Assembly (NCBI GenBank): GCA_043228905.1
Contig: JBHGNT010000007.1
Coordinates: 10,664,001 to 10,728,000, forward strand
Source: Azolla caroliniana
Lineage: Eukaryota > Plantae > Polypodiophyta
Direction of reading: 5' to 3'
Length of the DNA: 64,000 nucleotides
How positions within the stretch are numbered: the first letter of the stretch is position 1; every line of letters begins with the position of its first letter. This document shows positions 7,801 through 53,700 of the stretch, one piece after another. A program made the translations under genes and the position numbers. A model generated the notes under the pieces. It did not search any database and was not told where the DNA came from. It was given only the letters and a program-made list of their open reading frames with translations.

Positions 7801-9418
7801 GACAACCGACCGGTTCTTCCTTTCGGCCACACCATTTTGCTCCGGTGTGTACCTATAGCTGAATTCTCTCTGAATTCCATTCTACTACAGATAACTGTTG
7901 AATTGGTTGGTGTTGAGAGACAAGCTCAACATCGGCCGGATTGGCTGAGCAAGCCGAGGACCGGATCGGTTGGGACCGATCGGTTAGGCCGGACCAGTGC
8001 GTAAAATGGATACGCAAACCAGTGCGTAACGAGAGGCCGTATCGGTGCGTAATCCGAAAGGCCGTTAGAGAGATATTCCTCGTAAGGAATACTTTTGGGA
8101 GTAAGTGGCGAGGCTCATTTATGAGCAGTCAAGTACTGTCAGTACTTGTGTCAGCCCGATTGTCAGGGCTTGTATAAAAGGTGCTCACTGAGCACGGTGT
8201 ATGTACAGAGAATTAGTATTTTTGAATTTACCTTTTGAGTGTTCTCTCTCTGTCTCTCCCACGTACTGTGTATTAAAGCTCTCCATTAAACCTGCGTATT
8301 TTCTCTGTGTTCGTTTTCTATTGCTTCCACACATAATCTTTCACAGCTGGAAAAGTATTCTTTCCCACCATCTAACCGTAGGCACTTGATCTTCCTCTCG
8401 GTTTCCCGTTCAACCAGGCTTTGCAGGTTCCAGAAACACTCGAAGACTTCGCTCTTCCGCTCAATGAGGTAGATCCACGTGTGCCGGCAATAGTCGTCGA
8501 TGAAGGAGACAAAATACCGACTCCCGCCAAGACTAACGTTTTGTGCCGATCCCCATACATTTGCATGAATAAGGTTGAGCTTGTTATGGCTATGGTTTCG
8601 TTCGGTGGGAATGGAAGCCGTTGTTGCTTCCCGAGTTGGCAGGTTTCACAAATTTCGACCTTCCGGCCGCTAAATTTCGGCAAACTGAAAACGACTTGTT
8701 TCAATTGTAGGTCTTGAAGCCTTTGATAATTGACGTGGCCGATCCGCTTGTGCCAAAGATCGATATCCGATTCAATCTTCTGTCCTTTGGCGAACAAATC
8801 GGTGCCGACGTCATTGGTGTCGAGGATAAACATCCTCCCGTCTCTGCGCCCTAGCGCAATGATTTGGCCCTCTTCCTCGATGAAGTACCCAAGGTGCGTA
8901 AACCGCACCTGCATCGCTTGCATCACCTGCAACCGACACCAGGTTCTTCGTGATAGTCAGAACATGTAATATGCTCATCAGCTTCCCCCTCTGTTCGACG
9001 TGGCTCAAAGGGACTTCTCCGACATGCACGATTGGGTGAGGAGTGTTGTGTCCGGTTTCGACAACTCCCTGTTGTTCTAGTTTCTCTAGGAAAGAGAACC
9101 ACTCCTTGTGGCTGGTCATGTGATTTGACGCACCAAAGTCAACGTACCACATTTCCCCTGATTTGGAAGTGGTCTTCTTCATTGAGTTAGCCTCGTGTTT
9201 CATTACCAAGGCTAGCCCTTTACTCGCTTTTCTGGTTTTGGATCCTCCTGATCCTTCTGCGTAGTGGGAGTATTGCCGGTTCTCTCTACCGGCCTTGTTG
9301 GATCTGGATCTGTCCGAATAGGCGTGCTTCTTCCAGCACTCGCTTTCTCTGTGGCCCTTTTTACCACAATACCAGCATTTCGTGTCAACCTTTGCTTGCC
9401 GGCCTCCGGTGCCGCCTT
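4899..9418 (-). pseudogene. Copia B gag-pol (zinc knuckle, protease, GAG-pre-integrase, integrase, RT, RNase H), disrupted
   Basis: CWYCGKKGHRESEC, WYVDFGASNHM, LWHKRIGH, AERKNRS, YKARLVAKG..QMDMKNAFL..LLYVDDL, DADWA..RRSTSG, HARTKHIEV. Copia domain order (integrase before RT); several stops and frameshifts. Confidence 0.9.
7911..8345 (+). repeat. Solo LTR of the copia A/E family inserted in the copia B integrase
   Basis: TGTTGAGAG...TTCACA; TSD GTTGG/GCTGG; similar to LTRs 1117-1543 and 49485-49943. The uninterrupted site is visible in copia E at ~47345. Confidence 0.88.
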
Positions 9419-12400
9419 TGTTACTCGGTCGGCAAGAAGGCTTAAGGATGTCCAAACCAGAGTACCCTAAACCCTCCGGTGCCGCCAAAAACTGTGTTAA
9501 TCCTAGGGCCGGACAACAGCCTAACACAAGGTGTCCACTTAAAACACTTCACCAAAGGGTGTTACGGCAAGATGACTTATGACACAACGCTTAATTAGAC
9601 CTTAATTGGTTACTTAGCAATACATCATTAACACGCGTAAGATATACAATAAGCACAGAACGGTAATCAATACTGAAAGGTTAAGGCAATAAGTTCTATT
9701 AATTATCCATTGTGAATTACATTGTAACCAGGCCTTTATATAGGTCTCCGGTGCGAAGTACAAAACGGTGCCAACCGGCACCTATTCGGAATCGGTTCGG
9801 ATCCGGATCGGCATACCGATTCCGGTCCTTCCGTCCCTATTACTAAAATAATTACAACAGTTCCCGAATAAACTATTCCTTTCACACTTTGGTCTGGACA
9901 TCCTTAAGCCTTCTTGCCGTCCGGGTAATACATGGCATGCCCGTGGGACAGTACCTTGTACGTTGAACCCATTATCCGGCCCTGCTACGTTGTACTATAA
10001 GTAGGAAATTTTGGTTCTACGACAACGTAGGGTGTACGATGGTTGACGTTGTTGGCTGGAAGAAGAAAAGGGCGGAGGAGCGACTTTGGGCATGTGGTAT
10101 CCTCGGCCTTGGAGAGGAAATCAACGGAGCCGTGGAGGCGGTCTCTTTCGACGATACCTTGGGGGAGCTGCGAGAGGTAGTTGGAGGAGTCCTTAAAGAG
10201 GACCGGACGATTCCGGTATGTTCGGAAAGGATGTACGAAGTCATCGCGGACTTCAGTAGAGGGCTCGAGTCGGATCGGATGGCCCGGGTGGACACGAGGT
10301 ACAAGACTGTGGACCGGAAGGTGAGGCCAGTCGCGGCTCCCTTGCCGTAGGGCAGCGAGTTCCGAATAAAGGGGGGTGCGTCGGACCCGAGTTTACGAAA
10401 TCCGGCCCACATAGGACACACGTTCACCGACATAACGTTGCGCGAGCTCAAAATAGGTGGGGGCGGCTTCCTACTGCAGGCGGAAGAGGACCGTTTTCGG
10501 GAAATGCTCGGAAGGCACGGGAAGGCTTTCGCATTCTCACTGGAGGAGATCGGGTACGTAGACCCGACAGTCGTGGAACCGATGGTGATATTCACGGTAC
10601 CGCATGTGCCGTGGAGTCTCAAACCGATTCCAGTACCCAGAGCTCACATCCCGAAGCTGATGGAGCTGTTAAAGCAGAAGGTCGAGATGGGAATCCTCGA
10701 ACCGTCGAGTGCCCCATACTCGAATCGGTGGTTTATTGTGCCGAAAAAGGACGGCACGTTGCGCTTTATACAAGACCTGCAGCCGGTCAACAAGGTGACC
10801 ATTCGAAACGCAGGAATCGGACTGACAATAGACGAGTTGGCGGAGGCCTTTGCAGGAAGGTCGATTTACTCGGTCGGTGATCTCTACTCGGGGTACGATC
10901 AATTCCAGCTTGCTGTAGAGAACAGAGACATCACGACAATGCGAACTCCTCTCGGCCTAGTACAGATGTGTACCCTGCCGCAAGGAGGGACGAACTCGGT
11001 GGCTCACATGGTGAACGCAATGAACAAAGTGTTGAGGGATTGTATCCCGGACATCACCATGCCGTTTTTGGACGACGTCCCGATCAAGGGATGCCTGGTG
11101 GAGGAAAGGGACGAGACGATCGGACCGGACAGGTGCCGGAAATTCGTGGCGAAGCACATCGATGACTGCGAGAAGGTGCTGCAGAGGTTGGAGGGCGCGG
11201 GGTTCACCTTCTCCAGGGGAAAATCGGCCTTCGGGCAATCAGAGATCATGGTCGTCAGATACCTATGCGGGCCGTACGGCCGGAAACCGTCTCCGGCTAA
11301 GGTAGAAGCCATCTCCGCGATGAAGACCGACTGTAGCTCGGTCACGGAGGTTCGGAGGTTCTTGGGAGCGTGTGCGTTCTACCACATATGGATCCCGCAT
11401 TACGCTCACGAGTCCGACCGGGATCGGATGGGTCGTCAACCAAGAGGACGAGGATGGCATGCGTTCCCCGATCCGGTTCGGCGTGAAGGTCCTCAGCGAG
11501 TGACAACGAGGATACGCCCAGGTTAAACGTGAGCTCTGGGGTATCGTTTCGGCGGTAAAGGCCGATCAAGACTACCTGATCGGGACAGAGGTAATTATCG
11601 AGACGGACTGCCTGCCGATCCTTGGCATGGTTTCCGGATGTGTCACGCCGGACCTGGCAATGCTCAGGTGGATAGCGTACATCAAGTCCTTGAATCCGGA
11701 AATACGACACATTTCCGGGAAAGACAACGCCATGGGCGACATGCTTTCAAGGGTGAGGTTCGAAAATGACGGCGGCATGGTTTCAGAGGACGAGGAAGTC
11801 GGCATGGACTTCTTCGAGGCGGCTTACGTAACAACCGGTAGGGAATGCTCTCCAATGCTTAACGATTTCGACGAGAGCAAGTACGACGGGGAGTGGCTAC
11901 AGATCGGCGGGTTCCTAAAAACAATGACACCGGACGCGGCATGGACAACGGACGAGGCCAACCGGATTCGGAAGAAAGCCTACCGATTCTTTCTCCGGGA
12001 CGGATACATATGGAAGCACCCGAAGAAGAGGAACGAAATCCCGCTCCGAGTGGTGGCGAAGAAGGAGGAACAGGAGGATTTGCTGGCGGCGTACCACGAT
12101 AGCCCGTGGGCTGGTCACCGTGGAACGTGGGCCACGTTCGAAAAGCTAAAGGGGAAGTACTGGTGGCCGGGACTATACCGGGACATGCATCGGTTCGTGA
12201 CGACTTGCGAAAGTTGTCAGGTGCACTCCATGATCTGACATCGGGACGAGCTTCACCTGACCTTCCCTCTGACCGTCCACTTCAAGTGGATGGTGGATTT
12301 GGTGACGATGCTAATGGGGGTAGGACAGATGCGGTATCTGGTGCTGGCTCGGGAAGATCTAACAAACCAGGTTGAAGGCCGAGCCCTGCAGAACAAGACG

Positions 12401-19189: not shown

Positions 19190-19230
<41 letters not shown>

Positions 19231-19493
19231 AAAGCTCTCTGTAAGTTCACTCCGGCCATCGTTTTCTACGTTCTATAGCTCGTTGGAAAGCTCTTTGAGA
19301 GAGGTTTCTAAAGAATGTTCATTTACTGAATTCCGTTACCGTGGCGAGAAGTTATGAGCATTTTCATCCGCAGCCATCTTTGCCCCACGGTTCCTCAAAC
19401 GGAAGGTAGATTTTGAAGCCCTAAATCGAGTGAAAGGTACATTCTCTCTCCTTCCCTCTTTGTCTCTCTTTTCCCGTACGGTTTATCCCTACA

Positions 19494-20363
19494 ATGGCAA
19501 ATACTCGTAAAACCGCCGCAAAGTTTGGGGGTATGATTGATAATGAGCCGAGATCACCAACAAATCTCGATTCTAATGCAATGGACAAAATGCTTATGAG
19601 TCACTTGATTTCTCTTCAAGAAACCATAAACAAGCAAGGTGAAGAGATTAGGATGTTAATGAAAGAGAATACTAAGCTCCAAAGTGTTGTCATTGAGAAT
19701 GAAAGTCTTAAACAAGTGGTTGCAAAACTTCAAGAAGAGATTCAAGAATGTAAAAGAGCTTCATTTGAAACAAATGAGCGCCTTAACAAGATTGAGTTAA
19801 AGGAAGCATTAAAAGAAGAAAAATTGGATACGATGAGGCGGGATGTAAGTGAGATGAAAAATGTATGTACAACGAAGTCATGGGCCGATGTATGTGGTGG
19901 GGATGTGTTATCAAACTCATCTAATATGCATGTGATGCATCAAGAGAAGAATATAGAAAGCATAGATGTCCGAGAATTGAAAGAACGCGAACGACGATCA
20001 AAGAACATTGTCGTCCGTGGGATTAAAGAAGAGAGTATGGAAACACCCGCATCCCTTGGAAAGGCCATTGGTGAATTTTTTAGCATGCATTATGGGATGT
20101 CAGATGTGAATGTATATGGGGCACACCGAGTTGGGAAACATGGTGTTACTCGCTCCGGAGAAAGGCCTATTGTATGCACAATGACAGATGATACAAAGCG
20201 GCGGATCATACTCGAAAATAGTTGGGTATACCTCAAAGGTACACAATGCTTTGTGAGTGAAGATCGTACTATCTCACAACAAAATGCTCGTCGTAAAGCA
20301 TATGAAGAAAGATTGAAAAACAAGGTTAAGGATGTGCCTAAAGATGGAAATGTAGGCAAATAG
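19494..20363 (+). CDS. LINE ORF1 protein (coiled coil plus L1/CR1-type RRM-like region)
   Basis: 289-aa open ORF; heptad-rich N-terminal half; RSKNIVVRGIKE, HRVGK, RPIV and SEDRT motifs typical of LINE ORF1p. Confidence 0.85.
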   Translation: MANTRKTAAKFGGMIDNEPRSPTNLDSNAMDKMLMSHLISLQETINKQGEEIRMLMKENTKLQSVVIENESLKQVVAKLQEEIQECKRASFETNERLNKIELKEALKEEKLDTMRRDVSEMKNVCTTKSWADVCGGDVLSNSSNMHVMHQEKNIESIDVRELKERERRSKNIVVRGIKEESMETPASLGKAIGEFFSMHYGMSDVNVYGAHRVGKHGVTRSGERPIVCTMTDDTKRRIILENSWVYLKGTQCFVSEDRTISQQNARRKAYEERLKNKVKDVPKDGNVGK

Positions 20364-20369
20364 GGACAC

Positions 20370-23300
20370 GTGATCTATGAGACTAACCCACGCCTTTTAC
20401 GACTATGCTTTTGGAATTGCAATGGATACCCATGGAATGCGGGATTTGGCATAGAGGAGTTCACCAATGACTCGGATATCACACTTCTTGTTGAAACATG
20501 GGAGCATGATACTCAAAGGATTCAAGGTTTAGGAAACTATAATGTACACTCTTTGATATGGAAGAAAAATCCAAGACAAAGAAGAGGACAAGGAGGGGTG
20601 GCATGTTTGATTAAGAAGGAAATAGAGAAATATGTGTCAATCATAAAAAATGATGAAAATAAATGCTACATATGGCTCAAAATAGAAACACCTAATGATT
20701 TGCCCACTTTTGTTGTTGGATGTTACATTCCTCATCAAGATTCTAACTTTTATGCTTGTTTGGATAAAGATCAACCGTTTGCCAATCTAGAAGATGATAT
20801 TGCTTATTTCAAATCCAAAGGGGAAGTTATTGTCTTTGGTGACATGAATGCTCGTACAAGAAGTTTCCAACTTGATTCACAAGAATCTTTCATGCCACAT
20901 ATCTCAAGGATGCAAGAGGATATGCAAATGTATAACCGCTCTTCTAGCGATGAAAAAGATCCGGACCAATTTGGGAAGTTACTCCTACAAATGTGCAATA
21001 GTACCGGATTGCTTATTGCAAATGGTATTTCCTTATGGCCCAACACTAATGGTTTTACATGTAGAAAATACAACGGAAATAGTGTGATTGATTATGTGCT
21101 ACTTTCCGAAGGTATTTTGGATCGTATACATAAATTCTCACTTGGTGAATGGACACCGGAATCAGATCATAGGCCTTTATGTATTGATCTCAAATGTATG
21201 CATAGGTTTGATTGTGAGAAGGCTATTGAAGATAATAAACAACCGCACTTGAGCATGAACCTTAAGCGAGCACCCATGTATTCCAAGATGGTTGAGGATA
21301 TGTTACAAATGACAAAGATACAACATGGTGCCACACTAGAATGCAAATGGGAAGCTTTCAAGAAAGTCATTCTCTCATGTACAAACAAATGTTTTTCGAC
21401 CAACCGCACATCTTGGAAATGCACCAAGAAACTTAGGAAAAAATGGTTTGATAAAGAATGTCGTGAAGCTCGAAAGTGCCTTATGGTTTTGGATGTAGTT
21501 AAGGATAAAGAGAATTACCAAAAGCATTTGCATGAGTATAAAAGGCTTATTCAAAGAAAGAGAAGAATATGGGAAGTTACTCAACAATTTATCCAAACAC
21601 AAGAGAAAGCACATGCATGTGCTAAATTTTGGGGAAATCTAAAGGGAAAACGTGTTGAGAGTTATGGTGACTTAACTCTTCACGACTTGTCTATGCATTG
21701 TAAGAATTTATATGAGTTATCTCTTGCCGGAAAGATGATGTGTTATGGTTCTCTTTCACATATGCCTTCCTTCTTTACAATTGAAGATATATGCATAGGA
21801 CTTAAGAAATTGGCCTCTCGAAAGGCAAGCGATCTTCAATGTATAAAGGCTGAAATGCTCAAATGGACGGGAAAGGAAGCACATATATGGATAAGCGATA
21901 TGTTTAATGATGCATTGCAACATGGTATGTCGTACGATTGGACTACAAATTGGATCAAACCTTTACATAAAGGTGGAGATATAAATAATGTAAACAACTA
22001 TCGAACCATCATGGTTGGCTCATTAATGGCAAAACTATTTGGAATGTATAATGGAATCAAAGATAAGTGTATGGGCTGAAAAAAGTGGTAAGAGAGCTTA
22101 TGGACAAGCTGGCTTTCGGAAACACCATAGCACCATTGATCACCTTATCACCCTTCGAGTATTAATGGAGGAAAGTCGCCTTAGAGGTAAAGGTTTATAT
22201 TGTTGCTTTGTAGACTTCAAGAAAGCTTTTGATATGGTACCTCGTGAGCATCTTTGGAGGCGAATGGAAGAACTTGAGGTGCCAAGTGAATATATGCTTG
22301 CAATTTCCCGAATTTATGAGAAGGTTATATGTTGTGTGCGCATGAAAGATAAACTTTCAGATTTTTTCAAAAGCACTATTGGTGTTAAGCAAGGATGCCC
22401 ACTCTCACCAACACTATTTGGTCTATGCATTGATGAATTGGAAGAAATGGTTACCAAGTTTGCAAAGGAAGAATGTGTTGAAGAAGTTGCCATTGGGAAT
22501 GTTGTGATTATGCTTTTGCTATATGCAGATGACGTAGTGCTTTTTGCAAATACTTTAGGAGATGCACAAAAGCTTATGAAGGCATTGGAAAAATTTTGCA
22601 TGCATACTAAATTAAGTGTCAATAGCTCTAAAACAAAGATTATGCTTGTGAAGAGCCAAAAAAGAGATAAACCATGCATTATGTACAACAATGAGCCACT
22701 TGAATGTGTGGAAAGCTTCAAATATCTTGGCCTTGAAGTTCCTTCAAATCATAGATGGAATGAATGTGCTACACGCCGCTTAGAGGCGGGCAAACGAGCA
22801 TACTATGCATTTGAGAACACATGCAATCTTGGAGATATTAAGTGTTGGGTCCTCAAGAAATATCTTTTTGACACTTTGGTGACACCAGTTCTTCTCTATG
22901 GGGTGGAAGTATGGGGCGGTAGCATCCCTAAGTCTACGTGGAAAGAGTTTGAAAATGTCCAAAAGCATTTTCTTACCAAGTTTCTACAAGTTAAGAAACA
23001 AACGCCCTACACCCTGCTCCTCCTTGAGACGGGATCGCTTCCCATTGAGATCATGGCCATGGAAAGGGTTGTTGAATACATGCTTAAGGTTCAAAAAAGT
23101 CCCTCACATCGACTTCCTAGAATTGCGTGGGAAGCAAGCAAAAAGATCCAAAAGACGCATAAAAGCAAAATTTTGTGTTCCGGTTGGATGCAAGATATAG
23201 AAAAATGGTTTGGTAGATGGGATGCGAGACACTTGCTTCATGATGCATCATTAGATTCCTCTGTAAATGAGGCATTTTTGCAACGCCAATGTATCATGAC

Positions 23301-23745
23301 ATGGGACAAATGTGGAGGCTCACGCTTCACACATTATACTACACATGTTGCACCTAACTACAAAACCATATTCTTTGCGGAACGGGGAAATCGTACACAT
23401 CCATACATGTTAGAGCCCATACCGTTATCTGCCATTCGAACCATTGCTTCCATGCGACTTAGCTCACATGCATTGCGATGTGAAACAGGGCGTTGGGGTA
23501 CAAGTGATGAGAGTGGTCGGCTATGCACACTTTGCCCTAAACAAGTTCGCGAGTCTGAGTATCACACTTTGATACAATGCTCTGCCTTTGATCATATTCG
23601 ACCATGCTTTCCACATCTCTTCGATCGAGCCCAATCTTTGCATGAATTCCTCTCACAACCACAATGTGCACTCTCGATTGCAACGTTCATTGGTAAAGTT
23701 CTTGAACATCGAGAGTCACTACTCACTTTCACACGTATCACGTGA
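20370..23745 (+). pseudogene. LINE ORF2 (endonuclease / reverse transcriptase / CCHC) with one frameshift near 22043
   Basis: FWNCNG, ETW, GDMNAR, IDY, SDH (APE); NYRTI, QAGFR, DFKKAFD, GVKQGCPLSP, LYADD, YLG (RT). The two ORFs join as KLFG/CIMES if one base is removed. Confidence 0.92.
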
Positions 23746-24087
23746 AATGTAATATTTTTGGTCTCATAGGTCATATTTGATCTCCGAAGACGATAATATA
23801 ATCTATCTATCTATCTATCTATCTATCTCTCTCTCTCTCTCTTTCCTCACCTATTCCTCGGTCCAAGACCCTAGTGGTCCCGCCTTGTTCTCCACGCACG
23901 CGCGTAACAACGCGACAACGTGCAACATAAATTGATATGTGCACCATAAATGTGTACCATAAATTATATATCGAATTCCTAGGTCCATTATACATGATCC
24001 TTTGCCACATCGCGTAGGCCATCTCTAGTTGAGTATTGTGGGTTAGTTGCTACCACTGTTGCTAAACCCTATCGAGTCCACCTACTG

Positions 24088-24500
24088 CCACTCTACACTC
24101 AGGGGCCGCTACTGTGCGTTCCAAGCACCATCAAAGAGTTGCTCAATCTGACGGGGTTCTCTTCTCTGTGACACTCTACACTCAGGGGCCGCTACTTTGC
24201 GTTCCAAGCATCATCAAAGAGTTGTTCAATCTGACAGGGTTCTCTTCTCTATGCCACTCTACACTCAAGGGCCGCTACTGTGCGTTCCAAGCATCATCAA
24301 AGAGTTGTTCAATCTGACGGGGTTCTCCTCTCTGTGCCACTCTACACTCAGGGGCCGCTACTGTCCAGTCCTGGATTGCTTCCACATTTCGATTTAACGG
24401 AGTTCACTCATCCAACGGCAACATTCTACACTCAGTTGTCGCCATTGGTAGGTCTTGGATTGCCTCCTCAACTGTTCGATCCAATGGAGTGAACTCCTCT
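24088..24500 (+). repeat. ~83-bp tandem repeat (about 3.3 well-conserved units, then about 2 diverged ones)
   Basis: CTCTACACTCAGGGGCCGCTACT recurs at ~24092, 24173, 24256 and 24339, and degenerate at ~24423. Confidence 0.9.
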
Positions 24501-24669
24501 ACTCTTTGGTCTTGGATTGCAATAACTTTTCTGTCTATTGATTATCTTGTGTATTGCTGTGTCTTATCTTGTGTATTGTGGAATATTTTTGTGTATTGTT
24601 GTTGCCCATAGCCATCTTAAATACTTGTTTTTTTTTCTGGAAATTTAGGGTTTTAATATGTCTAGCTAA

Positions 24670-27600
24670 ATGGAAGGGGAAGAAGGGTGTTTAGAATTAC
24701 CCCTCAATGATCATAAGGATAGGGATGATGCTATCAGGACACAACAAGCCATACGAAACTATTGGGCAGAGAAAAAAAGGAAACATCGTCAATTGTTGAA
24801 GGATGCGAAAGCCACACTCAGTAAAGGTAAGGATAGTTTAGCTGAGAATGTAAGTAATGCGACTACCATCATAGAGAGAAAGGTTGTAGACTATTTCAAT
24901 GTTCAAACCAAGCACATCAGCAATGAAGAAAAGAAGGTAGTACTTTATGGAATATGTAATGATCCATCGATAAAGGACTTAGTTGATTGTGATGGTCTTA
25001 ATGCAAACATATCATCTGTTTTAGTAAATAATCTTCGTAATAGTTTCGTATCTCTGAGCAGGTCAAAAGATGATCTTGTCTTAAAAAGGTCTAGTCTAAT
25101 GATGTTACTTAATAGTGATGTTGACGATATAAACATCACTGAGCTATCTAAGGTAATTGGTGTTAGTAGAAAAACAGTGTACAATACAATGAACCGTATA
25201 ATTTCCTCGGGTGAAGGAACTAGTCTACTAAAGCTAACTACAAGATGTAAGCCAATGACACCCAAAACATTTGAAATCAAGGATGTAATCACAATGTTTT
25301 GGACTAATGAGAGTAGGGTTTCACCCAATAAAAAGGATTTATGCAGGAAACGTGTTGGAAGAAATGAATACGAGGAGCATCCCATTCATCTTCTTGATGT
25401 ACCTCAGGTATTTACATTTATCTCAACATTTCTTTTGACTCTACACGGAAAGTTAATTAGCTTAGTTAGCAGAAAAGCTAATTAGCTTATCAATTACATT
25501 TACCTCAGTTAGCTACTAGGATAGCTACTACATAGGTAACTAGCTACTCTCAATAGCTACTACCATGATAGCTAATTAGCTATTCTCAATGGCTAATTTA
25601 GGTACTACCAGATAATTAGCTACCAAAATAGCTAACTAGCTACCAGGACAACTAATTAGCACTACTAGGATAGCTAATTTCGTTATAACCAGCTAATTAG
25701 GTACTAGGAAAGCTAATTAGCTACCATGATAGCTAATTGGCTACTAGGACAACTAATTAGCCACCATGATAGCTAATTAGCTACTAGGACAACTAATTAG
25801 CCACCATGATAGCTAATTAGGTACTAGACCAGCTAATTAGCTACCATGATAGTTAATTAGTTACTAGGAAAGCTAATTAGCTACCATGATAGCTACTTAG
25901 CTACTAGGACAGCTAATTAGTCACCATGATAGCTAATTAGCTACTAGACTAGCTAATTAGCTACCATGATAGCTAATTAGCTACTAGACCAGCTAATTAG
26001 CTACCATGACAGCTAATTAGCTACTAGAATAGCTAATTAGCTACTAGGACAGCTAATTAGCTACCATGACAGCTAATTAGCTACTAGGACACCTAATTAG
26101 CTACCATGATAGCTAATTAGCTACTAGAATAGCTAATAAGCTACTAAAATAGCTAATTAGCTCCTAGGATAGTTAGCTAGTTACGAGAATAACTAATTCC
26201 CCTTTATTACGCAGGCCGATTTATTTATTAGGTTCAAACGAATGCATCCAACTATCAAAGTTCAACTACGAACATTCGAGTCTCTTAAGACACACTTTGT
26301 GAGACGCTTTAAGGATCGATACACATGTTGTTGCATTTACCATGTACAGATGGGTTTTTTGAAGGACTCTGTTAATCTACTACGTCACCATAGCGCATCC
26401 CTAACTAATACAGTTTGCACATGTGGGTGCCCATTATGTCAAGATTATGGCCCTACTAGATTTAGGTGGTGTCCAAATGAATTGAGTAGTGAAATATTGA
26501 TCTCTGTGAAGTTATTTGAGTCAGTGAACACCTATTTAGAAGGAAAGGTGTGTAAAAGAAAGGATCTAGTTCGGAAGATGCTTAAACCAAGGGATTTTGT
26601 GTCTCTGTTTGAAGTATCTCTAGGAAAGTTCATTAAACACAACTTCATTTATTCATGGCAGGCCCATCAGTTTAAGACTTGCATATCTGATTTCCCAAAT
26701 GATGTAGTAGTCTCAATAGTAGATTTCGCAGAGAATTATACTTTCAAGCAGCAGAATGAAATTCAATCTATGCATTGGTGTTCAATTCAAGTAACCATTT
26801 TTGTGCACATAACATATTTTCGAGTTTCAGGTGATGTTAAAAAAGTAATTCATTTCTTTATTTCCGATGATAAGAAGCATGATACCTTGTTCTTCCAACA
26901 CTGTTTTAAGTTACATTGCCAGTGGTTATTAGCTCAACGTTTGGAGCTTACTCAACATTGGGTTTGGTCTGACGCAGTTGCGTCACAATTCAAGGCTCGA
27001 CGTCCATTTTATTTTGTGGGGAGGTATCCTGCTATAACAGGTTTGGAGATGAGATGGAATGTTTTTGGGTCTGGCCATGGTAAAGGTGAACATGATGGTG
27101 CAGGGGTTGTTATAAAGCGGGCAGTTACCCATGAACAACTAAAGACAAATGGTGTGCACATGAATTGTGCATCACATGTAGTTGAATTTTTAAGAACAAA
27201 TATGTCAACGAGTGCAACATGTGTTTATTCCTCGCAAGTCCAAGATATCAAACGTGAATTTTGGGAAGTGAAGATAGATGAAGTAAATAGGGAGAAGACC
27301 TGGGAGTGCCAAGGAATTCCCGAATTGTGATCTCTACATGCTGTTCGCGGTTATTCCAGGTTGGATGGTCATTGTATTGCGGTTAGAGAATTGACTTGTT
27401 TTTCCTTCCATTGTGTGCAGGGAAATTGGAGATATTGTCTAAACAAAGCATACATTCAGAATTGGGAGTATAACACTCTGAATGATAAGGAAGCAGTTGA
27501 TGGAGAAACAGGGCAGAATGCTGACTTCACATATGAGGGACTTGGAGATACTTTGAGTGATGTCGTGAACGTTGGGGATAACTTCGTTGTAAATGCTGAA

Positions 27601-27921
27601 GAAGGCAATTCAGAGGGTGCTGATTTCTATATATTGAAGTGCATGGTTAGTAAAGAGTGTGCAAGGCAGAATATTGTAGATGCATGGGGAAATTTTGTAT
27701 CGGTCGGGACATTCTACATCGAAGGCATTTTTTATGCAAAACTAGATGACTACGAATATGTGTACAGGCTGTTAGAAGACAAACCATCAGCGTACATGTA
27801 CTCTCATTTGGTCAGGTGCATCAACGTCCCAATGTCAGAATACAATAGCTGCTCAGGTTTATACACTGTTGGTGCTAATGTGTATGAATGTATTTACAAT
27901 AGTATGCCATGGAATTTGTAG
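24670..27921 (+). pseudogene. Spliced DDD/E transposase, Sola2-like (exons 24670-25407 and 26215-27921; ~814 codons, one premature TGA at 27328-27330)
   Basis: Phase-0 intron CAG|GTATTT...TTACGCAG|GCC joins ORF 24670 in frame to ORF 26242, and ORF 27361 is in the same frame. Motifs CCCIYH, VDFAENY..QNEIQSMHW, SDDKKHD, WSDAVASQFK, FGSGHGKGEHDGAG..IKR, RELTCFSFHC. Confidence 0.82.
25455..26198. repeat. Palindromic minisatellite (TAGCTAATTAGCTA core, ~20-bp units alternating as ~40-bp dimers) inside the transposase intron
   Basis: AGCTAATTAGCTACCATGAT alternates with AGCTAATTAGCTACTAGGAC. Confidence 0.95.
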
Positions 27922-29059
27922 CTACAAGTAGCAATTACCATGTTCTCTTGTAAAACAAACATGTATTTCGCGAAAACAGTTAAATAAATTCGTTTGAGAA
28001 TCAATTTCTTGTATACAGTCTCCTTCTGTGCTTCTTTCTCAATAAAATCATGTCTTTTTTGTTAAGTTTTAAGTTATAAGTTATAGCGAAATAGTCATCA
28101 GTAGCTAATTAGTTGTACAAATGCAACTAATTAGCTGTCAATAGCTAAATAGTCATCAATAGCATGAAATCAACAATCTGCAACATATTCCTCAAATTAC
28201 ACAATAGATAAGTACAATGGGAACAAGTAATTAAATTCTTCATTGAATAATGTCATCTCTTTACATATTTATAAATTACCATTGGAAATGTCTACAAATC
28301 TGCTATAAACAGCTAAGCTCTTGCTAGTCAGTGGAACGAGTCTACATATATTATCCGCATATCGAGCTCGGTATGGAGTCCACAACCATGCACCTAGTTG
28401 GCAGCTCACTGTTTGCACCAGGTACTATTCAGGCATTTCCTCGGGTAGAATGAGACAGCATCTCCGAATATTGAAGTAGTGCCAGAAATGTTATGTATCC
28501 AAAATCAATGTGTTGCCGGCATTATATTCAGGCCAAGTAGCCCAAAAATCAGAAAGTCTCTTGAATCTTGCAGCTTCCATTTGCTCACAATTTTCTCGCG
28601 CCCATTGACCTTTAAAACGACTTCGCCATTTTGGGAAGAATCTTGCTAAACACTTCCACACATCTGATTTTGGTTTTTCACTCCAAATAAACAAATCAAA
28701 GTATTGCACAACCCACTCTAGAAACTGATTCGCGTCCCTCCTTGGTTGCATATATCTCACACTCATCAAGACTTTATCAAGCTCCAAGATCAAGGCTCTT
28801 CTTTCGACTTCTAGTGGTTTAGGTTTCCATTCCTGAAACTGAGCCGTTGTTACACCATTTTCTGGTAGGACACGATCAATCTCAATCAGCTCAGGTTCGG
28901 CCGACACAATTGGCGTCCTTTTCCTCTTCAAACCCCTAGTCGACTGTGTTGGGCCTGGCTTCACATTCTGGTGCTCTTGTTTTGTCGACTTAGTTATCAA
29001 TCCTCTGATTACCTCGGTGCATGTAGCTACTGATTTGCTCGATATAAGTCCACTGGTAT

Positions 29060-29190
29060 CACATGTTGCATCTACCTGCAACATCAAGTCATCCGTGCAC
29101 CATGCTGCATCTACCTGCAACACCAAGTCATCCGTGCAACATGTTGCATCTACCTGCAACACCAAGTCATCCGTGCACCATGCTTGATCA
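29060..29190 (-). repeat. 42-bp coding tandem repeat (DDLVLQVDAxxCT, about 3 copies)
   Basis: Visible in the DNA (GCATCTACCTGCAACA.CAAGTCATCCGTGCA) and in ORF 28491-29402. Confidence 0.9.
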
Positions 29191-30121
29191 ACTTGTGTGA
29201 CCAGATCACTTGTGTCAGTTGCTACATCTACTTTCAAGATGGGGCCCTTTAAACATGCTGCAACATCAATAGTATCCACACTGCCATTGGCCTTACGAGC
29301 AATAGAATCAAACCCTTTAGACTCTGCAACATCAGAAAACACCAACATATTCACACTCACAAAGTAACTAACAGTCTCACAAAACAACATCTTGAACATC
29401 AAAGAGTTTCAGTCATAGAACAACACTCTTCAAATTATCTTGGAAAAACATCATAGAGTTCCATTACATAATGTGGATCAAGCAACAACCAATCTGAGGT
29501 TTTACTTGTCCAACGGGATAGTAAAACTTCATAAACCCTAGCAAAATCCCTAAGCTAACAATCATATCCAACTAAACAGTATTTCGCTCCACTACGTCTG
29601 GGCCCCTTGACCGAGTAACTGGTCTTGTTCCCGATCGTGGCCCCTTCTTCAGCCTTTTTCGGGTCGGTTGCCCATTTAGCCTTGCTTCTTTCACCCAATG
29701 CGCAAGTGTGTCCTCCTCCAACAACCTTCCCATCGCCTCAGCAGTTAATTGCACATCAGCCGTTTCTTGAACTAGCTTTTCAAGTACAGAGGGATCTGTT
29801 TGGACATTTTCAGTAGTTGGGCTCGGTGGGGTGGAATCAAGGTCTTGAGATTCGAAGAAATGTTGCATCAAGTGTTCATAAACACTGTTGTTGTGAACCT
29901 CAGTTTTAAATGTTGTTTCCACTATTTCATGGCATTTCACATCGTTGCCTAATTCAGTACACTGTTCCTAAAGAATAGGGTGGAGCTGATCTGAAGGAGA
30001 TGTGATAGCAGGACTCTTACTTTCAGCCACGTTGGCAGCAGTATCCTCATCTGTTGCAGCGTCATCAGCACCAGACACATCATGTGCCGTCCTTAATCCA
30101 CAAGATTCTACAATAACATGG

Positions 30122-31706
30122 CAGCTATTTAGGATAGCTAATTAGCTAGTACGATAGCTAATTACCTACTTTACTCAACTATGGTAGTAGCTAGGATAGC
30201 TAATTAGCTACTATGGTAGCTAGTACGATAGCTAATTAGGATAGCTAATTAGCTAGTACGATAGCTAATTAGCTACTTTACTCAACTATGGTAGTAGCTA
30301 GGATAGTAGCTAATTAGCTACTTTACTCAACTATGGTAGTAGCTAGGATAGCTAATTAGCTACTTTACTAACTATGGTAGTAGCTAGGACAGTTAATTAG
30401 CTACTTTACTAACTATGGTAGTAGCTAGGATAGCTAATTAGCTACTATGGTAGCTAATTAGCTACTTTACTCAACTATGGTAGTAGCTAGGATAGTTAAT
30501 TAGCTACTTTACTAACTATGGTAGTACCTAGGATAGCTAATTAGCTACTTTACTCAACTATGGTATTAGCTAGGATAGCTAATTAGCTACTTTACTCAAC
30601 TATGGTAGTAGCTAGGATAGCTAATTAGCTACTTTTCTCAACCATGGTAATAGCTAGGATAGCTAATTAGCTACTTTACACAACTATGGCAGTAGGATAG
30701 CTAATTAGCTACTTTCTCAACTATGTAGTAGCTAGGATAGCTAATTAGCTGCGAGTAGCTAATTAGCTACTTTACACAACTATGGCAGTAGCTAATTACC
30801 TAGTAGGATAGCTAATTAGTTGCCAGTAGCTAATTAGCTAGTAGGATAGCTAATTAGCTTTTTTACACAACTATGGTACTAGCTAATTAGCTAGTACCCA
30901 TAGCTAATTAGCTACTAGGATAGCTAATTAGCTTTTTTACACAACTATGGTACTAGCTAATTAGCTAGTACCATAGCTAATTAGCTACTAGGATAGCTAA
31001 TTAGCTATCCTAGTAGCTAATTAGCTATCCTAGTAGCTAATTAGATATAGGATAGCTAATTAGCTACTTTACACAACTATGGTACTAGCTAATTAGCTAG
31101 GAGTAGCTAATTAGCTAGTAGCTGACTAACTGCCAGTAGCTAATTAGTTGCCAATAGGATAGCTAATTAGCTAGTACCATAGCTAATTAGCTAGTATCTC
31201 ATTAGCTGTCAGTAACTAATTAGATAGTAGGATAACTAATTAGCTACTTTACACAACTATGGTACTAGCTAATTAGCTAGGAGTAGCTAATTAGCTAGTA
31301 GCTGACTAACTGCCAGTAGCTAATTAGTTGCCAGTAGGATAGCTAATTAGCTAGTACCATAGCTAATTAGCTAGTAGCTCATTAGCTGTCAGTAACTAAT
31401 TAGATAGTAGGATAACTAATTAGCTACTTTACACAACTATGGTACTAGCTAATTAGCTAGTAGCTGACTAACTGCCAGTAGCTAATTAGTTGCCAGTAGG
31501 ATAGCTAATTAGCTAGTAGCTAACTAGTTGCCACTTAGCTAATTAACTATTGTAGTAAACTATGGTAGTAGCTAATTAGCTAATAGGATAGCTATTAGCT
31601 GCTTTAATCAACTATGGTAGTAGCTAATTAGCTACAATGATAGCAGCAAAATAGTTTCCATACTTTTTACGGCTTAGCTAATTAGAAAAGACTAAGCTTA
31701 TTAGCT
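30122..31706. repeat. Second palindromic TAGCTAATTAGCTA array (~43-bp units, ~180-bp higher-order duplications) filling intron 4 of the accessory gene
   Basis: GGATAGCTAATTAGCTACTTTACTCAACTATGGTAGTAGCTA units; the ~31060-31240 block repeats at ~31240-31420. Confidence 0.95.
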
Positions 31707-33084
31707 ACGGTATGGTATACCTGTTAGTTTTCTCCACTCATTTGGTAGAGCTGTACTGCAATCTCCCAAACAGAATGCAACAATTCGACAGGCATGTTGA
31801 AAACAAAGCAGATGGTCTGTGTGGTTGCATGGTTGTAGGTGAACCAACAAAGACGTAGTTTTGTCCTCCACACCTAACCCGCAAGCAATGCAACGTGCTT
31901 GAACTGTCAATAAATCATTTTCTGGTTCTCCTTCATTTGGTAAGGGAGCAAGAATGTTCATGTCCAAATCCTGTCTGGTCCTTACCATTCCCTCCACAAA
32001 ATGTAGCTGCTTCTTAAGGGAGCTAACTACCTGTTCTTGATGAATGTATTGTTCCTTCAATGCAACAGAGAAATTTACCGATTAATTATTCCTGTTTGAC
32101 AATGATACACCAACTTTGCTCAGGAATCGTTAACTTACTTGAAGCTTTTCCAAATTGTAATCTGCAACAATATTTACACCTAGAAGGTCCAGGTTCATTG
32201 AAAGAACCTGGATCTCTATTTGCAGTTGTATTTTACGCTGGGGATCCAAGGGCCCCTCTAATTCAAGCTCCTGTTGCACAACCTATTCCAGATAATGCTT
32301 GGTTAGCACATTTTACCCTTAAAGTTATTTATAACACAATCACATACCAGCAAAACAATAGTTACTTGAATCTTATTTCTAATCGTTGTAACAACGGAAG
32401 TAACTTTGCTCTCCATTGCAAAAGCCATTATGGCTTTCTCTAAATCAGTCTTAAAAATTGCCAATGTGTCATAGGCTTCATGGACATTTTTTAGCATATA
32501 GCTAACCAATGTCTCACCTGTATCATCGACATTGGCTTTCCTTGGGTGTTGGTGTGGTGTATGCCCCGGGTCTTGGTGGGAGTCGGCAGTTGCATCAACA
32601 ACTACCATGCTCCAAAATCTGTCTATTTTTTGCGCCAAGGTCCCCATCTTTCGGCATCTTTTTACCGATGCCTCACCATAGACTGCCCAAGCTACCCTAT
32701 ACATTTCAGGGTCTCTAGATTCCTTCGTTGTTTTGCAGTACTCATATGCAAATGCTCTAGCAAATGAAACTGACAACTCATTGTTGACTGGGATCTCCCG
32801 ATTAACTTTCTGGTGCAGCCTCATGCAGTCATCGTACAAGTCGGCTCGTACATGCTTCAGCTTGACCTTGGCTTTGACTCTAGGCACTGTATATACTGTC
32901 ATTCAGTCTACATCACTGAACAATTTATCACTTAGGATAGTAGGGTCAACACCCTCGAGTGACACACCATAGGTGTTGTGGAAGTCCTCCTTTGTCTCGC
33001 AAAATTTTGCGAAGTTTAGCACTCTCGGATACGAAGGAACGAGCCATCTGAAATATCATTTCAAAAATAAGAAATAGTGCAAAA

Positions 33085-33600
33085 TCAGAATATGTCAGAA
33101 TCAGAAACCCCAATCAACAACAACAGAAATAGTGCAAAATCTTTAACTTAGCAAATCAGAAACCCTAATCATAATTTGTATTCAGAGATTTGAAATCAAA
33201 AACCCTAATCAAAATCTGTAATAAGAAGTTTGTAACCAGAAACCCTATTCAGAAATTCTAATCAGAAATTTATAATCAAAAACCCTAATCAGAAATTTCA
33301 ATCACAAACCCTAATAAAAAATTTCAATCACAAACCCTAATTAGAAATCCTAAATAGAAATTTATAAACAAAAACCCTATTTAGAAATTCTAATCAGAAA
33401 TTCTAATCTGTAATCAAAATTTGTAACTAGAAACCCTATTCAGAAATTCTAATCAGAAATTTATAATCAAAAACCTTAATCAGAAATTTCAATCAGAAAC
33501 CCTAATTAGAAATTTCAATCACAAACCCTAATCAGAAATTCTAATCAGAAATTTATAAACAAAAACCCTAATTAGAAATTTCAATCAAAAACCCCAATCA
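33085..33600. repeat. AT-rich array of AAACCCTAAT(CAGAAATT) units (telo-box-like) in intron 1 of the accessory gene
   Basis: More than 10 copies of AAACCCTA, interspersed with AATCAGAAATT. Confidence 0.85.
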
Positions 33601-35210
33601 TCACTAAAGACAGGATTAAACATAAAAAAAGTAATATAAACACACCTGCTGCTACTCCCTGATCTCCGAGACATCCTTGTGTGGGACTCCAAGGACTTCA
33701 CCCTATTCGATTTTGGGGAAATATGAATCGGCACCAAAGTTCAGATTGTAGTCAAAAAGAAAAAACAAATGTTTGGGGTTTCTGTAACTGAAACATACTT
33801 GGACGATGATCAAGCGGGTTCTGTGTTGTAGCTCTCAATCTGCAATGTCGATTTTTTGCTGTTGCGGGAGCTACGTTTGCGTTCGTGCTCTGAGTACTCC
33901 ATCTGCGTTCAAAATCAAACTTAGGCTAAACAGGAAATTGATGACATGGAAGTCGACCTTAGATGATGGTGCTATTCCCCAAGTTCCACTACGTTTGAAA
34001 CAGAACTTCAAATATTTGAGTTTTTTCATAAATTAGTTTTTCAAATATTTGATTTTCCCACAAAAAAGACTAGCTAAACAAATAGCTAATTAGCTATGGC
34101 CATTTTAGTAGCTAATTAGCTATACTAGTGTTTCCACTCGCATGCTTTTACCCTTCTATTAATTATCCGCTGTCAATTACATTGTAACCGGGCCTTTATA
34201 TAGGTCTCTGGTGCGAAGTACAAAACGGTGCCAACCGGCACTTATTCGGAATCGGTCCGGATCCGGATCGGCATACCGATTCCGGTTCGTCCGTCCCTAT
34301 TAATAAAATAATTACAACAGTTCCCGAATTAATTATTCCTTTCACACTCTGGTCTGGACATCCTTAAGCCTTCTTGCCGGCCGGGTAACAACCTTGACTC
34401 CCCCTGCTTGTGGAGGGTCCGGAACTGTTGTCGGCTCGATACGTTCTCTGTGCCTTTGGTCCTGCACTTACTAGCCGCTACCATTGCGAGCTGACCCACC
34501 TCGTCCACCACGCCCATGGGGCCGATCCGCTACCATTGCGAGCTGATCAACCTTGTCCACTACGCCCACGGGGCCGATCCGCCTCCGTGTACAACATTTG
34601 GTTGTTGGTGGGTGCACTTGTTGACGCACCGACGTGGTTCTCCTCTACAAGGAGCATCGAGTGTAAGTCGAAAAATGATGACGTATTCTCCCTTGTACAT
34701 ACCGCCGTTCGGAACGCTCTGAACTTAGACACTAGGCCCCCAAGACAGATTTGCACCATCTCCTCTTCCTCAACAGTGACGTTTATAGAGGCAAGTGAGT
34801 CACAAATCTCTTTGATTCGGGCCATGTAATCGGCTACCGACATGTCCTTCTGTCGGACATTACTCAACTCCTGTCCGGGCCGTAGTGCTTGCCGCGAAAA
34901 CCTTCTTCAGGTTTCCCCAAGCTTCTTTTGGCGTCTTGGCATCTCGAACATGCCTCAACAGCTGGTCTCTGACACTGGACGCAAAGCAGTACATCACTCG
35001 GCTTGCCGCTTGTTTCCACATTGGGAAGTCCTTGTGTGCCGCATAAGGTCTTGTGTCATTAGCTATGTTGACATAGGTCCAGTAACCATGCCCAAGCAGG
35101 TACTGGTGCATCTTGTATGACCAAGTTGCGTAGTTGGATCTAACGAGCTTCTCCATCGGGAGCGAGCTAGCCATTCCTCTGTCCATCACTTCTCTTTCTG
35201 TTCTTACCGG

Positions 35211-50749: not shown

Positions 50750-53700
50750 TGTTGGGATTACGGTCCCTTCGGATGGGATGGTCGGATGTCGGAGATGAAT
50801 GCCGACAATCCCGGTTTCGGTTTCGGATCCGGATGACGAAGACCCCGGCTTCGGTGCCGGATGACGAATGTACCCGGAGAGCGATCCGGATGCAGGGACA
50901 TATCCGTGAATATGTTCGCTATGGGCCCCTGAGGCCACAGTTGTAAATAGCCCCAAAGTCATATGTGTATAAATATGACTTAGGGCAAACAGTTTTAATG
51001 TTGCTACTCATTTTTCTGTTTTTCCACTCAAGAGGAGTGAAGAGAGAGCAGCCGTGAGAGAGAGAGAGAGATAGAGCGCGAGAGAGGAAGAGGTAGACGC
51101 CTCTGTGTATTTCCGCCGCCTGTGGCGAGGACAGCGAGCTCAAGGTCGTCGCCTTGCAGCTCGCCATTGTATACTTCTCTGTATAGTGTTGGTTTGGAGT
51201 CTTGTACTCCCGTGGTTTTTCCCGTCTAGGGTTTTCCACGTTAATCCCTGTGTGCTCGCGTTTTTTTTGTTTCTCCGTGTGGTTCCTATTTTCTGCTGCA
51301 TTGATCCGCGATTAATCGGTTGTGGCCGAGTGGTGAAGGTGAATCTAGAAGTGTCGATTCCCAACAAACTGGTATCAGAGCGACTGCTGCAGAAAATGGA
51401 AGGCGGCGGCAGCGGGCAGCCGGGGATGATGGTGCTGAATGCACAGAATTACGCCGACTGGAAGATCAAGATGGAGGATCTTCTGATTGTTCGGGACCTG
51501 TACGAACCGATTGACAGGTCGGAAATACCGAAAGGGGTACTTGAGTCGGAGTGGAAGCTCCTGAACCGGAAAGCCGTAGCGACGATCCGACAATATGTCG
51601 ATGTAAGCGTCCTACAACATGTGGCAAACGACACCAACGCATATGAGATGTGGAAGAAGCTGTCGGGCCTCTACGAGAGGAAGAATGCGTTGAACCGGAC
51701 CTCCCTGATGAGGAAGATAGTGAATCTCAAGTACCGGGACGGCGAGAGTATGGTGGAACACGTAAGCACGTTCATGGGATTCGTGAATCAGCTTGCGGCG
51801 ATCAAGTTCCCGTTGGAGGATGCAATGCAAGCCATCATCCTGATGTGTACATTGCCGGAAAGCTGGGAGAACTTGGTGGTGACTCTCAGCACCTCGTGCA
51901 CCGAAGATAACTTGTCCTTACAAACGGTAAAGACAAGTATTCTGAATGAAGAAGCGCGTCGGAGAGATAAGGAACCGGTCTCCGACCCGAAGATGCTGTT
52001 TACCGAATCGGATCGGGGAAGACAATGGAACCGGAGTCCGCAAAGACGGGAGAAGTCGGGGACCCGGTCGCAGTCAAGAGGAAGGCCCACATGCTTCCAC
52101 TGTGGGAAGCCGGGGCACTTCCGAAAGAATTGTCGGCATTACCGAAAAGACAATGGAACCGACAACACCGATTCGAAGAAGTCACCGGAGAGAAACGGTG
52201 CATACCGGGGAGCCATGGACCAGAATGGTTCGGATCGGCGAGGGCAGGACCGGAAAGGAACGACGACACTCGCGGCAAGTGAAGAGGAGATCATGCTCAT
52301 CACCGAAGAAGGTGAACTAAACATTGCCGGCGATGAGACGACCTGGGTGGTCGATTCCGGAGCATCGTTCCACCTGACCCCGGAGAGAAGATACTTCTCA
52401 TCCTACACAGCCGGCGAGCATGGCTGTGTTCGGATGGGAAATGAAGGTACGTGCCGGATTGCCGGCATCGGAGACGTGTGGTTGACAACCCCGACCGGAT
52501 GCAAAATGCTGCTGAAGGATGTCCGACACGTTCCGGAGGTTCGATTGAACCTGATTTCGGCCGGGAGGCTAGACGATGAAGGCTACACAGGTAGCATCCG
52601 GAACGGCGTAATGAAGTTCAGCAAGGGGAGCCTGATAGTGGCTCGGGCCCGGAAAGTCAACACACTGTACCTGATGAATGCTCGGTTATGTCCGGAAGAA
52701 CTGAATGTGGCAGCTGACACTGCCGGTGAGCTGTGGCACAAGAGACTGTGCCACATGAGTGAGAAGGGGATGAAGAGGCTTGCAGAAGACAACCTCATCC
52801 CAGTGAAGCATGTGCACCTGGAGAAGTGCACCGATTGCCTGGCCGGTAAGCAGAACCGAACCTCCTTCCACTCAAGGCCACCGACGAGACGTAGCGCACC
52901 ATTGGAGTTGGTGCACACTGACGTGTGTCAGGTAGAGACGAAGTCACATGGCGGAGCCCAGTACTTCGTAACATTCATCGATGATCATAGCCGAAAACTG
53001 TGGACGGCACCGATGAAGACAAAGGACCAAGTGTTGTGCGTCTTCAAAGAACTCCACGCGAGAGTGGAAAGGGAATCCGGCAAGAAGCTGAAAGCGATAC
53101 GAGCGGATAACGGAGGGGAATACCGGGGGCAGTTCCAGGAGTACTGTCGCTCGAAGGGAATCCGACTCGAGTTTACTGTGCCGAAGACGCCGGAACTGAA
53201 CGGGCTGGCCGAGAGGATGAACCGGACCATAATGGAGAGGGTCCGGAGTATGCTGGCGCATGCGAAATTACCCAAGGGGTTTTGGGCTGAGGCAATGTCG
53301 ACGGCGACATACGTGATAAACAGATCACCCTCAGTACCTTTGGACGGAGACACGCCGCAGAATGTGTGGACCGGTAAGGAAGTGTCCTACCGGCATCTGA
53401 AGGTGTTCGGGTGTCTCGCCTACGTGCATGTGGCAAAGGACCGGAGAGGAAAGCTAGATCCAAAGACCCGGCCATGCATATTCCTCGGTTACGGCGATGA
53501 CGAGTTCGGCTACCGAGTATGGGACCCGGTCGACAAGAAGATATTCAGGAGTCGAGACATCATCTTCATGGAGGACAAGACACTCGCCGACTGGGAGTCG
53601 GAGAAGAAGGTAAAGAGCTCCAAGTCGACCGGTGAGGATCAACTCTACAAGGAGCAGTCCCGACCGGCAAGGGACCGGTTAGCACTCGAGGATCCGGCCG

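Follow-up and report, generated by a model that had tools for sequence, protein, structure and literature searches.

Remnant of a multicopy DNA transposon of the Sola2 type, with two genes and intronic palindrome arrays, in the fern Azolla caroliniana

What kind of mobile element carries a transposase gene with Sola2-like motifs, a second, convergent gene (here called the partner) and a CACTA string near its right end is the question raised by a stretch of 64,000 nucleotides from Azolla caroliniana (assembly GCA_043228905.1, contig JBHGNT010000007.1, positions 10,664,001 to 10,728,000 of the forward strand), which is called the window in the following. A preliminary description, made from the sequence alone, had proposed a two-gene Sola2 transposon with a CACTA-like end, and the Sola2 type and the joint travel of the two genes stand, whereas the CACTA-like end does not. 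The element is a two-gene Sola2-type DNA transposon that exists in many copies, and the copy in the window is decayed (Table 1). The part missing at its left end probably measures about 160 bp or more, and an intact copy would be about 10.4 kb long. The cargo and the palindrome arrays are its new aspect; the Sola2 transposase itself and Sola cargo genes are already in print. The data examined for further copies were sequencing runs, contigs of metagenomes and collections of proteins.

The transposase gene is spliced from 24670-25407 and 26215-27921 into 814 codons. The splice and the motifs DFAENY, WSD..SQFK and HGKGEHDG.G..IKR are as first described, but the frame is not open, being cut by a premature TGA at 27328-27330 (codon 618). 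The Sola2 signature motifs (DF[AS]ENY, QxEIQSxHW, ISD..H, SDG..Q[YF]K and HGK..DG.G..KR) are present in the protein when it is read against the alignment in Additional file 10 of PMC3627910, and the Sola2 assignment is a comparison of motifs with this published alignment, not with a labelled Sola1/2/3 profile or tree. The spacing between the three aspartates is 83/41, against 84/41 (counted by hand) in Sola2-1_HM (PMC3627910). These residues (D169, D252 and D293 in exon 2) do not vary across the 15 rows of the alignment, and the odd SDA at the second of them is private to the window copy (26975 C>G in 4/4 runs). A protein search with exon 2 gave 16 matches out of 1017 candidates of 649-2000 aa, and those with names come from Klebsormidium, Calypogeia (3) and one rotifer. 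In a tree of 17 rows, which has no labelled Repbase Sola rows, the window transposase falls with the sequences of the green alga and the liverwort and with four unnamed rows; the animal-type rows stand apart (support 100/100). The search of prokaryote genomes gave 0 loci.

Pfam has no family for the transposase core, and the absence of Sola from Pfam is stated in PMC5751038. The structural model of the transposase (pLDDT 74.3) aligns with IstA (Z 10.5, root-mean-square deviation 3.3, 152 aligned) and Mos1 (Z 10.2, root-mean-square deviation 3.2, 168 aligned), and likewise with integrases at Z ~10; a Foldseek search with it gave no match at E<=0.001. The predicted fold is RNase H-like, of the DDE/D type, and does not discriminate superfamilies. 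Loose ends at 26434 and 26440 (7 contigs, 2 runs) translate by hand into the Cys-rich segment of the homologues, and since the window lacks this segment, which other copies encode, an in-frame deletion in the Cys-rich region at 26434-26440 is probable. Two homologues, P0003 and P0004, begin at the position equivalent to 26215, and the position of the intron may be conserved in related plant transposases. The Klebsormidium homologue P0001 has N-terminal leucine-rich repeats and may be a merged gene model.

The right end of the element is at 34153, and not at 34130 as had been thought. The long terminal repeat (LTR) that resumes behind it is present also at window 9694-9928. Loose ends before 34154 are this LTR's own continuation in 3/4 sequencing runs, and in run X4 the match of 3 contigs breaks off at 34153, where different flanks follow. 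An 18-base end pattern matched 17 metagenome loci, 12 of which begin with GGG at one common point, each next to a flank of its own, and derive from six assemblies, possibly of one study. The other loci (L004, L008, L013, L016 and L017) diverge right past the pattern and were excluded as chance matches before the ends were counted. The 12 ends form two classes, 3 right-type and 9 left-type, with a common perfect 25-bp terminal inverted repeat (TIR), GGGTAAAAGCATGCGAGTGGAAACA, which is drawn from these loci and the window, both ends never lying on one contig. The right-type locus L014 is 96.8% identical to the window's right end over 554 bp. L009:1083-1529, another right end, is 75% identical to it over 449 bp, yet has the identical 25-bp TIR and the palindrome described below, and is a diverged subfamily that retains both. 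The TIR resembles that of Sola2-1_Ec32 (26 bp, GGCGG), both being short and starting with G (PMC12477816). The end pattern had 0 matches in viral contigs.

On the left side, position 23918, which had been taken as the boundary, is no terminus: it comes directly after the end of a gypsy LTR, and the left TIR was found within the window neither at <=3 mismatches nor by BLAST. The inner 24 bases of the left-type loci L010 and L015 have their best match in the window at 23936-23959 (22/24), 18 bases from the gypsy LTR end at 23917; this match scores 38 and the best of 30 shuffles 33, which is a modest margin. The nine left-type loci are read as the left end of the element, which the gypsy insertion would have removed here. 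The 4-mers adjoining the ends are A/T at 39 of 52 positions, against 58% in the flanks, and AWWT, the target pattern given for amoebozoan Sola2 (PMC3627910), is absent from them (0/13), so the element differs from amoebozoan Sola2 in this respect. TTTT, common to L001 and L002, was not used as a target-site duplication, the flanks of both being unconnected.

Both genes and both ends are marked by a single 12-bp palindrome, AGCTAATTAGCT, which is the common repeat motif foreseen in the preliminary description. Its 55 exact copies all lie within 25476-34121, and the 53,764 window bases outside the element hold 0, also at one mismatch. The transposase intron has 16 of them, the large intron of the partner 37 and the right end 2; 53 of the 55 are therefore intronic, and these lie at least 2.4 kb from either end. 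Left-type ends have one full and one half copy. Counted from the termini, the palindrome lies 33-59 bases inward on the right and 46 inward on the left. Copies are most often 20, 40-42 or 56-62 bp apart, distances close to whole turns of the helix, which may reflect protein binding. Intron 1 of the partner has another repeat, made of AAACCCTA words, which we take to be telo-box-like; host telomere-repeat binding proteins might find a second place to dock there.

The two genes were followed in other copies through the region 26220-30100, which is partly present in 20 listed runs (11 studies), none with more than 0.44 of its words; the linkage was examined with contigs of 4 of those 20 runs, one of which may be the window's own source. 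All bins over both genes and the spacer (30/30) are covered in 4/4 runs, and spacer-deletion variants join 27940 to 28125 and 27988 to 28160. A contig of 2,019 bp, which encodes the partner homologue P0104, holds the last exon of the partner, the spacer and then the antisense of 27989-27897, which overlaps the last codons of the transposase; therefore the tail-to-tail arrangement of the genes exists in one other copy at least. The co-occurrence of the genes, which the preliminary description had proposed to check, is thus borne out by P0104 and the spacer joints. Single contigs have depths of 3,000-8,600 alongside many at 7-90, which suggests many copies, no copy count being derivable from these depths.

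These joints and ends bear on another explanation, that the locus holds two separate adjoining elements or a Sola2/CACTA chimaera with a CACTA right end. It would account for a CACTA near the right end, adjoining subterminal repeats (CACTAGTATAGCTAATTAGCTA on the minus strand, with its end at 34130), and it gains from two features of the data, that no contig among those listed spans both stop codons and that the left end is tied to the element through the 24-bp match only. A CACTA terminus is rejected, since the ends read GGG...CCC and CACTA is internal and at the right end only. Copies had been expected to end at CACTAG; they end at GGG/CCC, 23 bp farther out, and the G of CACTAG is a change peculiar to the window's copy (34125 C>A, with >99% of summed depth in 4/4 runs). 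EnSpm/CACTA elements have CACTA/CACTG as the last five bases of both ends and make a 3-bp target-site duplication. They are also defined by two genes and subterminal repeats, both of which this element has, but it differs from them by its terminus, by its other catalytic motifs and by the lack of any Pfam match to Transposase_21 (TnpD) or the TnpA family at E<=1 with 7 query pieces and 4 window pieces. With P0104 and the spacer joints bridging the genes, and one motif marking both genes and both ends, two adjoining elements or a chimaera are very improbable.

The partner, as the preliminary description had rightly seen, is a convergent gene of several exons (six are predicted, on the minus strand) with a RING-H2 pattern and an FCP1-like domain. 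The latter matches PF03031 (NIF) in Pfam at 31.5 bits, against a cut-off of 21.8 (E=1.7e-07), and in Atlas the homologue P0042 is grouped with FCP1-domain clusters (score 0.95, TM 0.68); the NIF-like domain has no sequence match in PDB. FCP1/SCP phosphatases, which the partner resembles in these two matches, have DxDx[TV] as their catalytic motif. The partner lacks this nucleophile motif of the active enzymes, though the NIF/HAD domain is present: the position of DxDxT reads ELDKV in the window, P0046, P0102 and P0104 (LILELDKVL starts at 28793). The motif was located in 34 of the 68 relatives examined, with Glu first in 7 and DxDxT in 1. The RING-H2 pattern, C-x2-C-x17-C-x-H-x2-H-x2-C-x10-C-x3-C at 31892-31758, when compared with the C3H2C3 ligands of RING-H2 ubiquitin ligases, has C-x3-C as its last pair; it was aligned to RING-like parts of Adiantum proteins. 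Exons 3-4, which encode it, also have a heptad-like stretch.

A profile search with the partner gave 56 proteins, 20 of which were looked up, and nine clusters are named: four are from Ceratopteris, three from Adiantum nelumboides, and one each from A. capillus-veneris and Sphagnum. The best-scoring named relatives are those of Ceratopteris and Adiantum, and the locus tags of six partner-like proteins of Ceratopteris point to five chromosomes. P0063 of A. nelumboides (752 aa) matches three regions of the partner collinearly, namely exon 2 (32% identity, 160 columns, E=1.5e-16), exons 3-4 including the RING (E=1.7e-6) and the last exon (E=6e-17), with E-values computed for the 64-kb window, and the whole architecture of the partner is therefore old. 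The Adiantum model P0099 begins with a piece of a copia integrase and may be a merged gene model.

In the window, the partner has at least four in-frame stops (32905, 29970, 28493 and 28427), and its frame is also broken around 32090, close to where exon 4 begins. The exon 5 stop at 29970-29968 is private to this copy (29969 T>A in 4/4 runs), and P0046 and P0102 lack the two stops of the last exon (28493 and 28427). As far as the sequence tells, both proteins are out of reach for this copy, the reading frames of transposase and partner being broken. Open relatives of the partner exist at 60-74% identity and at ~92% (318 identical of 347 aligned), and the partner appears to be under selection.

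The partner could also be a captured passenger, which spreads without benefit, with arrays that are functionless slippage products of a subterminal motif. That both genes are broken in this copy agrees with this explanation, as do the growth of tandem arrays by slippage, discussed in PMC5735166, and the presence of a host-like Sphagnum family among the NIF-like relatives. It does not sit well with open frames that persist in subfamilies of 60-92% identity, with a three-part architecture retained at ~30% identity in Adiantum, or with several stops that are private to this copy, and a mere passenger is decidedly unlikely.

The reading we prefer, tentatively and at somewhat less than even confidence, is that of a decayed many-copy two-gene Sola2-type element whose partner binds the element's own palindrome arrays and counters silencing, as VANC proteins do. 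The transposase would cut at the TIRs and insert at AT-rich sites, where a 4-bp duplication is expected; cut-and-paste movement is deduced from the enzyme class and the ends (knowledge of DDD/E enzymes and the fold match). The palindrome just inside each TIR would be a protein-binding site, and its amplification would have produced arrays with even spacing in an intron of the transposase gene and in one of the partner gene. The partner would be a selected accessory protein. Its N-terminal domain would recognise the arrays and its FCP1-like domain would serve for binding, with no catalytic activity, while its RING would direct ubiquitination at a silencing factor, much as VANC acts on the motif repeats in the introns of VANDAL elements.

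Several observations weigh against this role of the partner. For its N-terminal domain, Pfam and Atlas (the latter searched with P0063) showed no family or DNA-binding fold, and no VANC or MAIN/PMD similarity of the partner was found in Pfam. The RING region has a weak Pfam match in P0063 of Adiantum (E=0.013) and a pattern match only in the window, where the RING exon has no Pfam match; no homologues of this exon were found among 52 candidates. The Sphagnum family, whose NIF domain is similar and likewise not of the DxDxT kind, has the appearance of a host gene. The place of the palindrome, directly inside both TIRs, is the usual one of a transposase site, and the transposase has a helix-turn-helix (HTH) match. 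The exons of the element are CpG-depleted, with observed/expected ratios of 0.3-0.59 against ~1.0 in the neighbouring LTR elements, and would therefore have had no lasting shield from methylation; element ages may differ, and the depletion cannot separate protection from age.

The position of the palindromes leads to a further explanation, in which the two-gene Sola2 element is the same, the arrays are amplified transposase-binding sites that act as decoys or in autoregulation, and the partner acts solely by contacts with other proteins; it could, for instance, be a ubiquitin ligase or a scaffold whose target is the transposase or a factor of the host. The closeness of the palindrome to both ends (33-59 on the right, 46 on the left) and the HTH of the transposase speak for it, and the recognisable parts of the partner, RING and NIF-like, are protein-interaction modules, no DNA-binding family having been found in it. 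The concentration of palindromes in introns at least 2.4 kb from the ends (53/55) fits the VANC pattern better than end synapsis, and we consider transposase-binding decoys rather unlikely. A stronger version of the preferred anti-silencing reading would be a fern Sola2 lineage with its own, VANC-independent and sequence-specific anti-silencing, in which one protein, built of a DNA-binding domain of a new kind, a RING ubiquitin ligase and an FCP1-like reader that is catalytically dead, would dock on helically phased palindrome arrays in the introns and remove a host silencing factor from them; such a complete system is unlikely.

Table 1. Features of the transposon remnant and of its borders, in window positions
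Feature	Position	Strand	Remarks
Transposon remnant	23918..34153	.	10,236 bp; left end lost to gypsy insertion
Gypsy LTR end, outside the element	23845..23917	+	Cut off the left end of the element
13-bp micro-repeat	23918..23964	+	Ties this copy to left-type ends (22/24 identical)
83-bp tandem repeat	24086..24364	.	3.4 copies, upstream of the transposase gene; no relation to the palindrome
Transposase exon 1	24670..25407	+	Weak HTH match, residues 143-181 (~25096-25212), below Pfam cut-off
Transposase intron, predicted GT..AG	25408..26214	+	20-bp-period array, 16 exact palindromes
Transposase exon 2	26215..27921	+	Predicted catalytic Asp codons 26722, 26971, 27094
Spacer between convergent stop codons	27922..28268	.	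One degenerate palindrome; length differs between copies
Partner last exon, predicted	28269..29326	-	39-bp repeat, basic stretch, FCP1/NIF-like domain
Partner exon 5	29572..30107	-	Acidic, low complexity; 3' border unsure
Partner large intron	30108..31721	-	37 exact palindromes; periods ~20, 42 and 180 bp
Partner exons 3-4	31722..32282	-	Predicted 32282-32139 and 32091-31722
Partner exon 2	32366..33047	-	Conserved N-terminal domain without known family; stop at 32905
Partner intron 1	33048..33645	-	13-bp-period repeat, 11 AAACCCTA words
Partner exon 1	33646..33674	-	Predicted ATG 33674
Two subterminal AGCTAATTAGCT copies	34082..34123	.	
'CACTA' string	34126..34130	-	Across inner TIR border, 23 bp from the end, one end only
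Right TIR GGGTAAAAGCATGCGAGTGGAAACA	34129..34153	-	25 bp; same in right- and left-type ends of other copies
Host LTR, outside the element	34154..34388	.	Insertion target; resumes exactly at 34154

The surroundings of the element in the window are a nest of retrotransposons, with copia and gypsy elements and a long interspersed nuclear element (LINE). The LINE at 19434-23843, which has ORF1, endonuclease and reverse transcriptase frames and an (ATCT)n tail, is inserted within the (TC)n tract of a gypsy LTR, with TC tracts at 19191-19227 and 23827-23843. The copia element at 50750-56096 has LTRs of 617 bp that are 100% identical, which makes it a recent insertion, and its polyprotein has one stop near 54641. 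Two starts of one LTR family lie in opposite directions at window 9421-9928, where 9421-9463 is the reverse complement of 9886-9928.

Among described elements, Sola2-1_Ec32 is 4.6 kb long and has a single ORF (PMC12477816), whereas the Azolla element, at about 10.4 kb, has a second multi-exon gene and intronic palindrome arrays. Accessory genes are known from other Sola elements, such as Sola2-Fanzor1 of Dictyostelium and Polysphondylium (PMC3627910) and Sola1-1_Ec32, which carries a ParB-methyltransferase; the Ectocarpus authors suggest that such proteins both bind their own element and modify it (PMC12477816). The Azolla element shares with them the combination of a Sola transposase and one accessory gene, but its convergent cargo consists of the N-terminal domain, the RING-H2 and the FCP1-like part, and matches no TnpB or methyltransferase family in Pfam. 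The view of Sola2 as a superfamily of single-gene elements mainly from animals and protists, held in the preliminary description, was overstated: two-gene Sola elements are published, among the DNA transposon superfamilies of the conifer Cupressus, Sola2 is reported as the most abundant (10.64898/2026.07.23.736688), and Sola is recorded for Physcomitrella and Capsicum (PMC10741241, PMC9033089) and for Ceratopteris (PMC6890710). No Sola element with a RING/FCP1-like cargo was found in full-text searches of the literature, which did not reach the original Sola paper, Repbase reports or bioRxiv supplements; plant Sola2 families with second ORFs may be described in these.

The closest functional parallel that we draw is to the VANDAL elements of Arabidopsis, which are Mutator-like elements (MULEs) with an accessory gene and a short motif in non-coding tandem repeats (PMC5735166). 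The Azolla element has these two features as well. In its own element, VANC21 binds a short motif whose repeats lie in introns, between genes and in the terminal parts, and it demethylates the element (PMC5735166); VANC has been traced to MAIN (PMC13547354). VANDAL elements belong to another superfamily, no sequence link between VANC and the partner of the Azolla element was found in Pfam, and binding and demethylation, which are shown for VANC, would apply here by analogy.

It is mainly from VANC of dicot MULEs that sequence-specific anti-silencing by a transposon's own accessory protein is known. If ferns had another design, unrelated to this one, the repeated origin of such systems would become testable, since the 12-bp target and the protein family are defined and the model fern Ceratopteris has homologues, and a new targeting module could be gained. 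Many fern genes annotated with an 'FCP1 homology domain' may be transposon cargo, and even without a role in anti-silencing, a many-copy family of fern Sola2 elements is defined.

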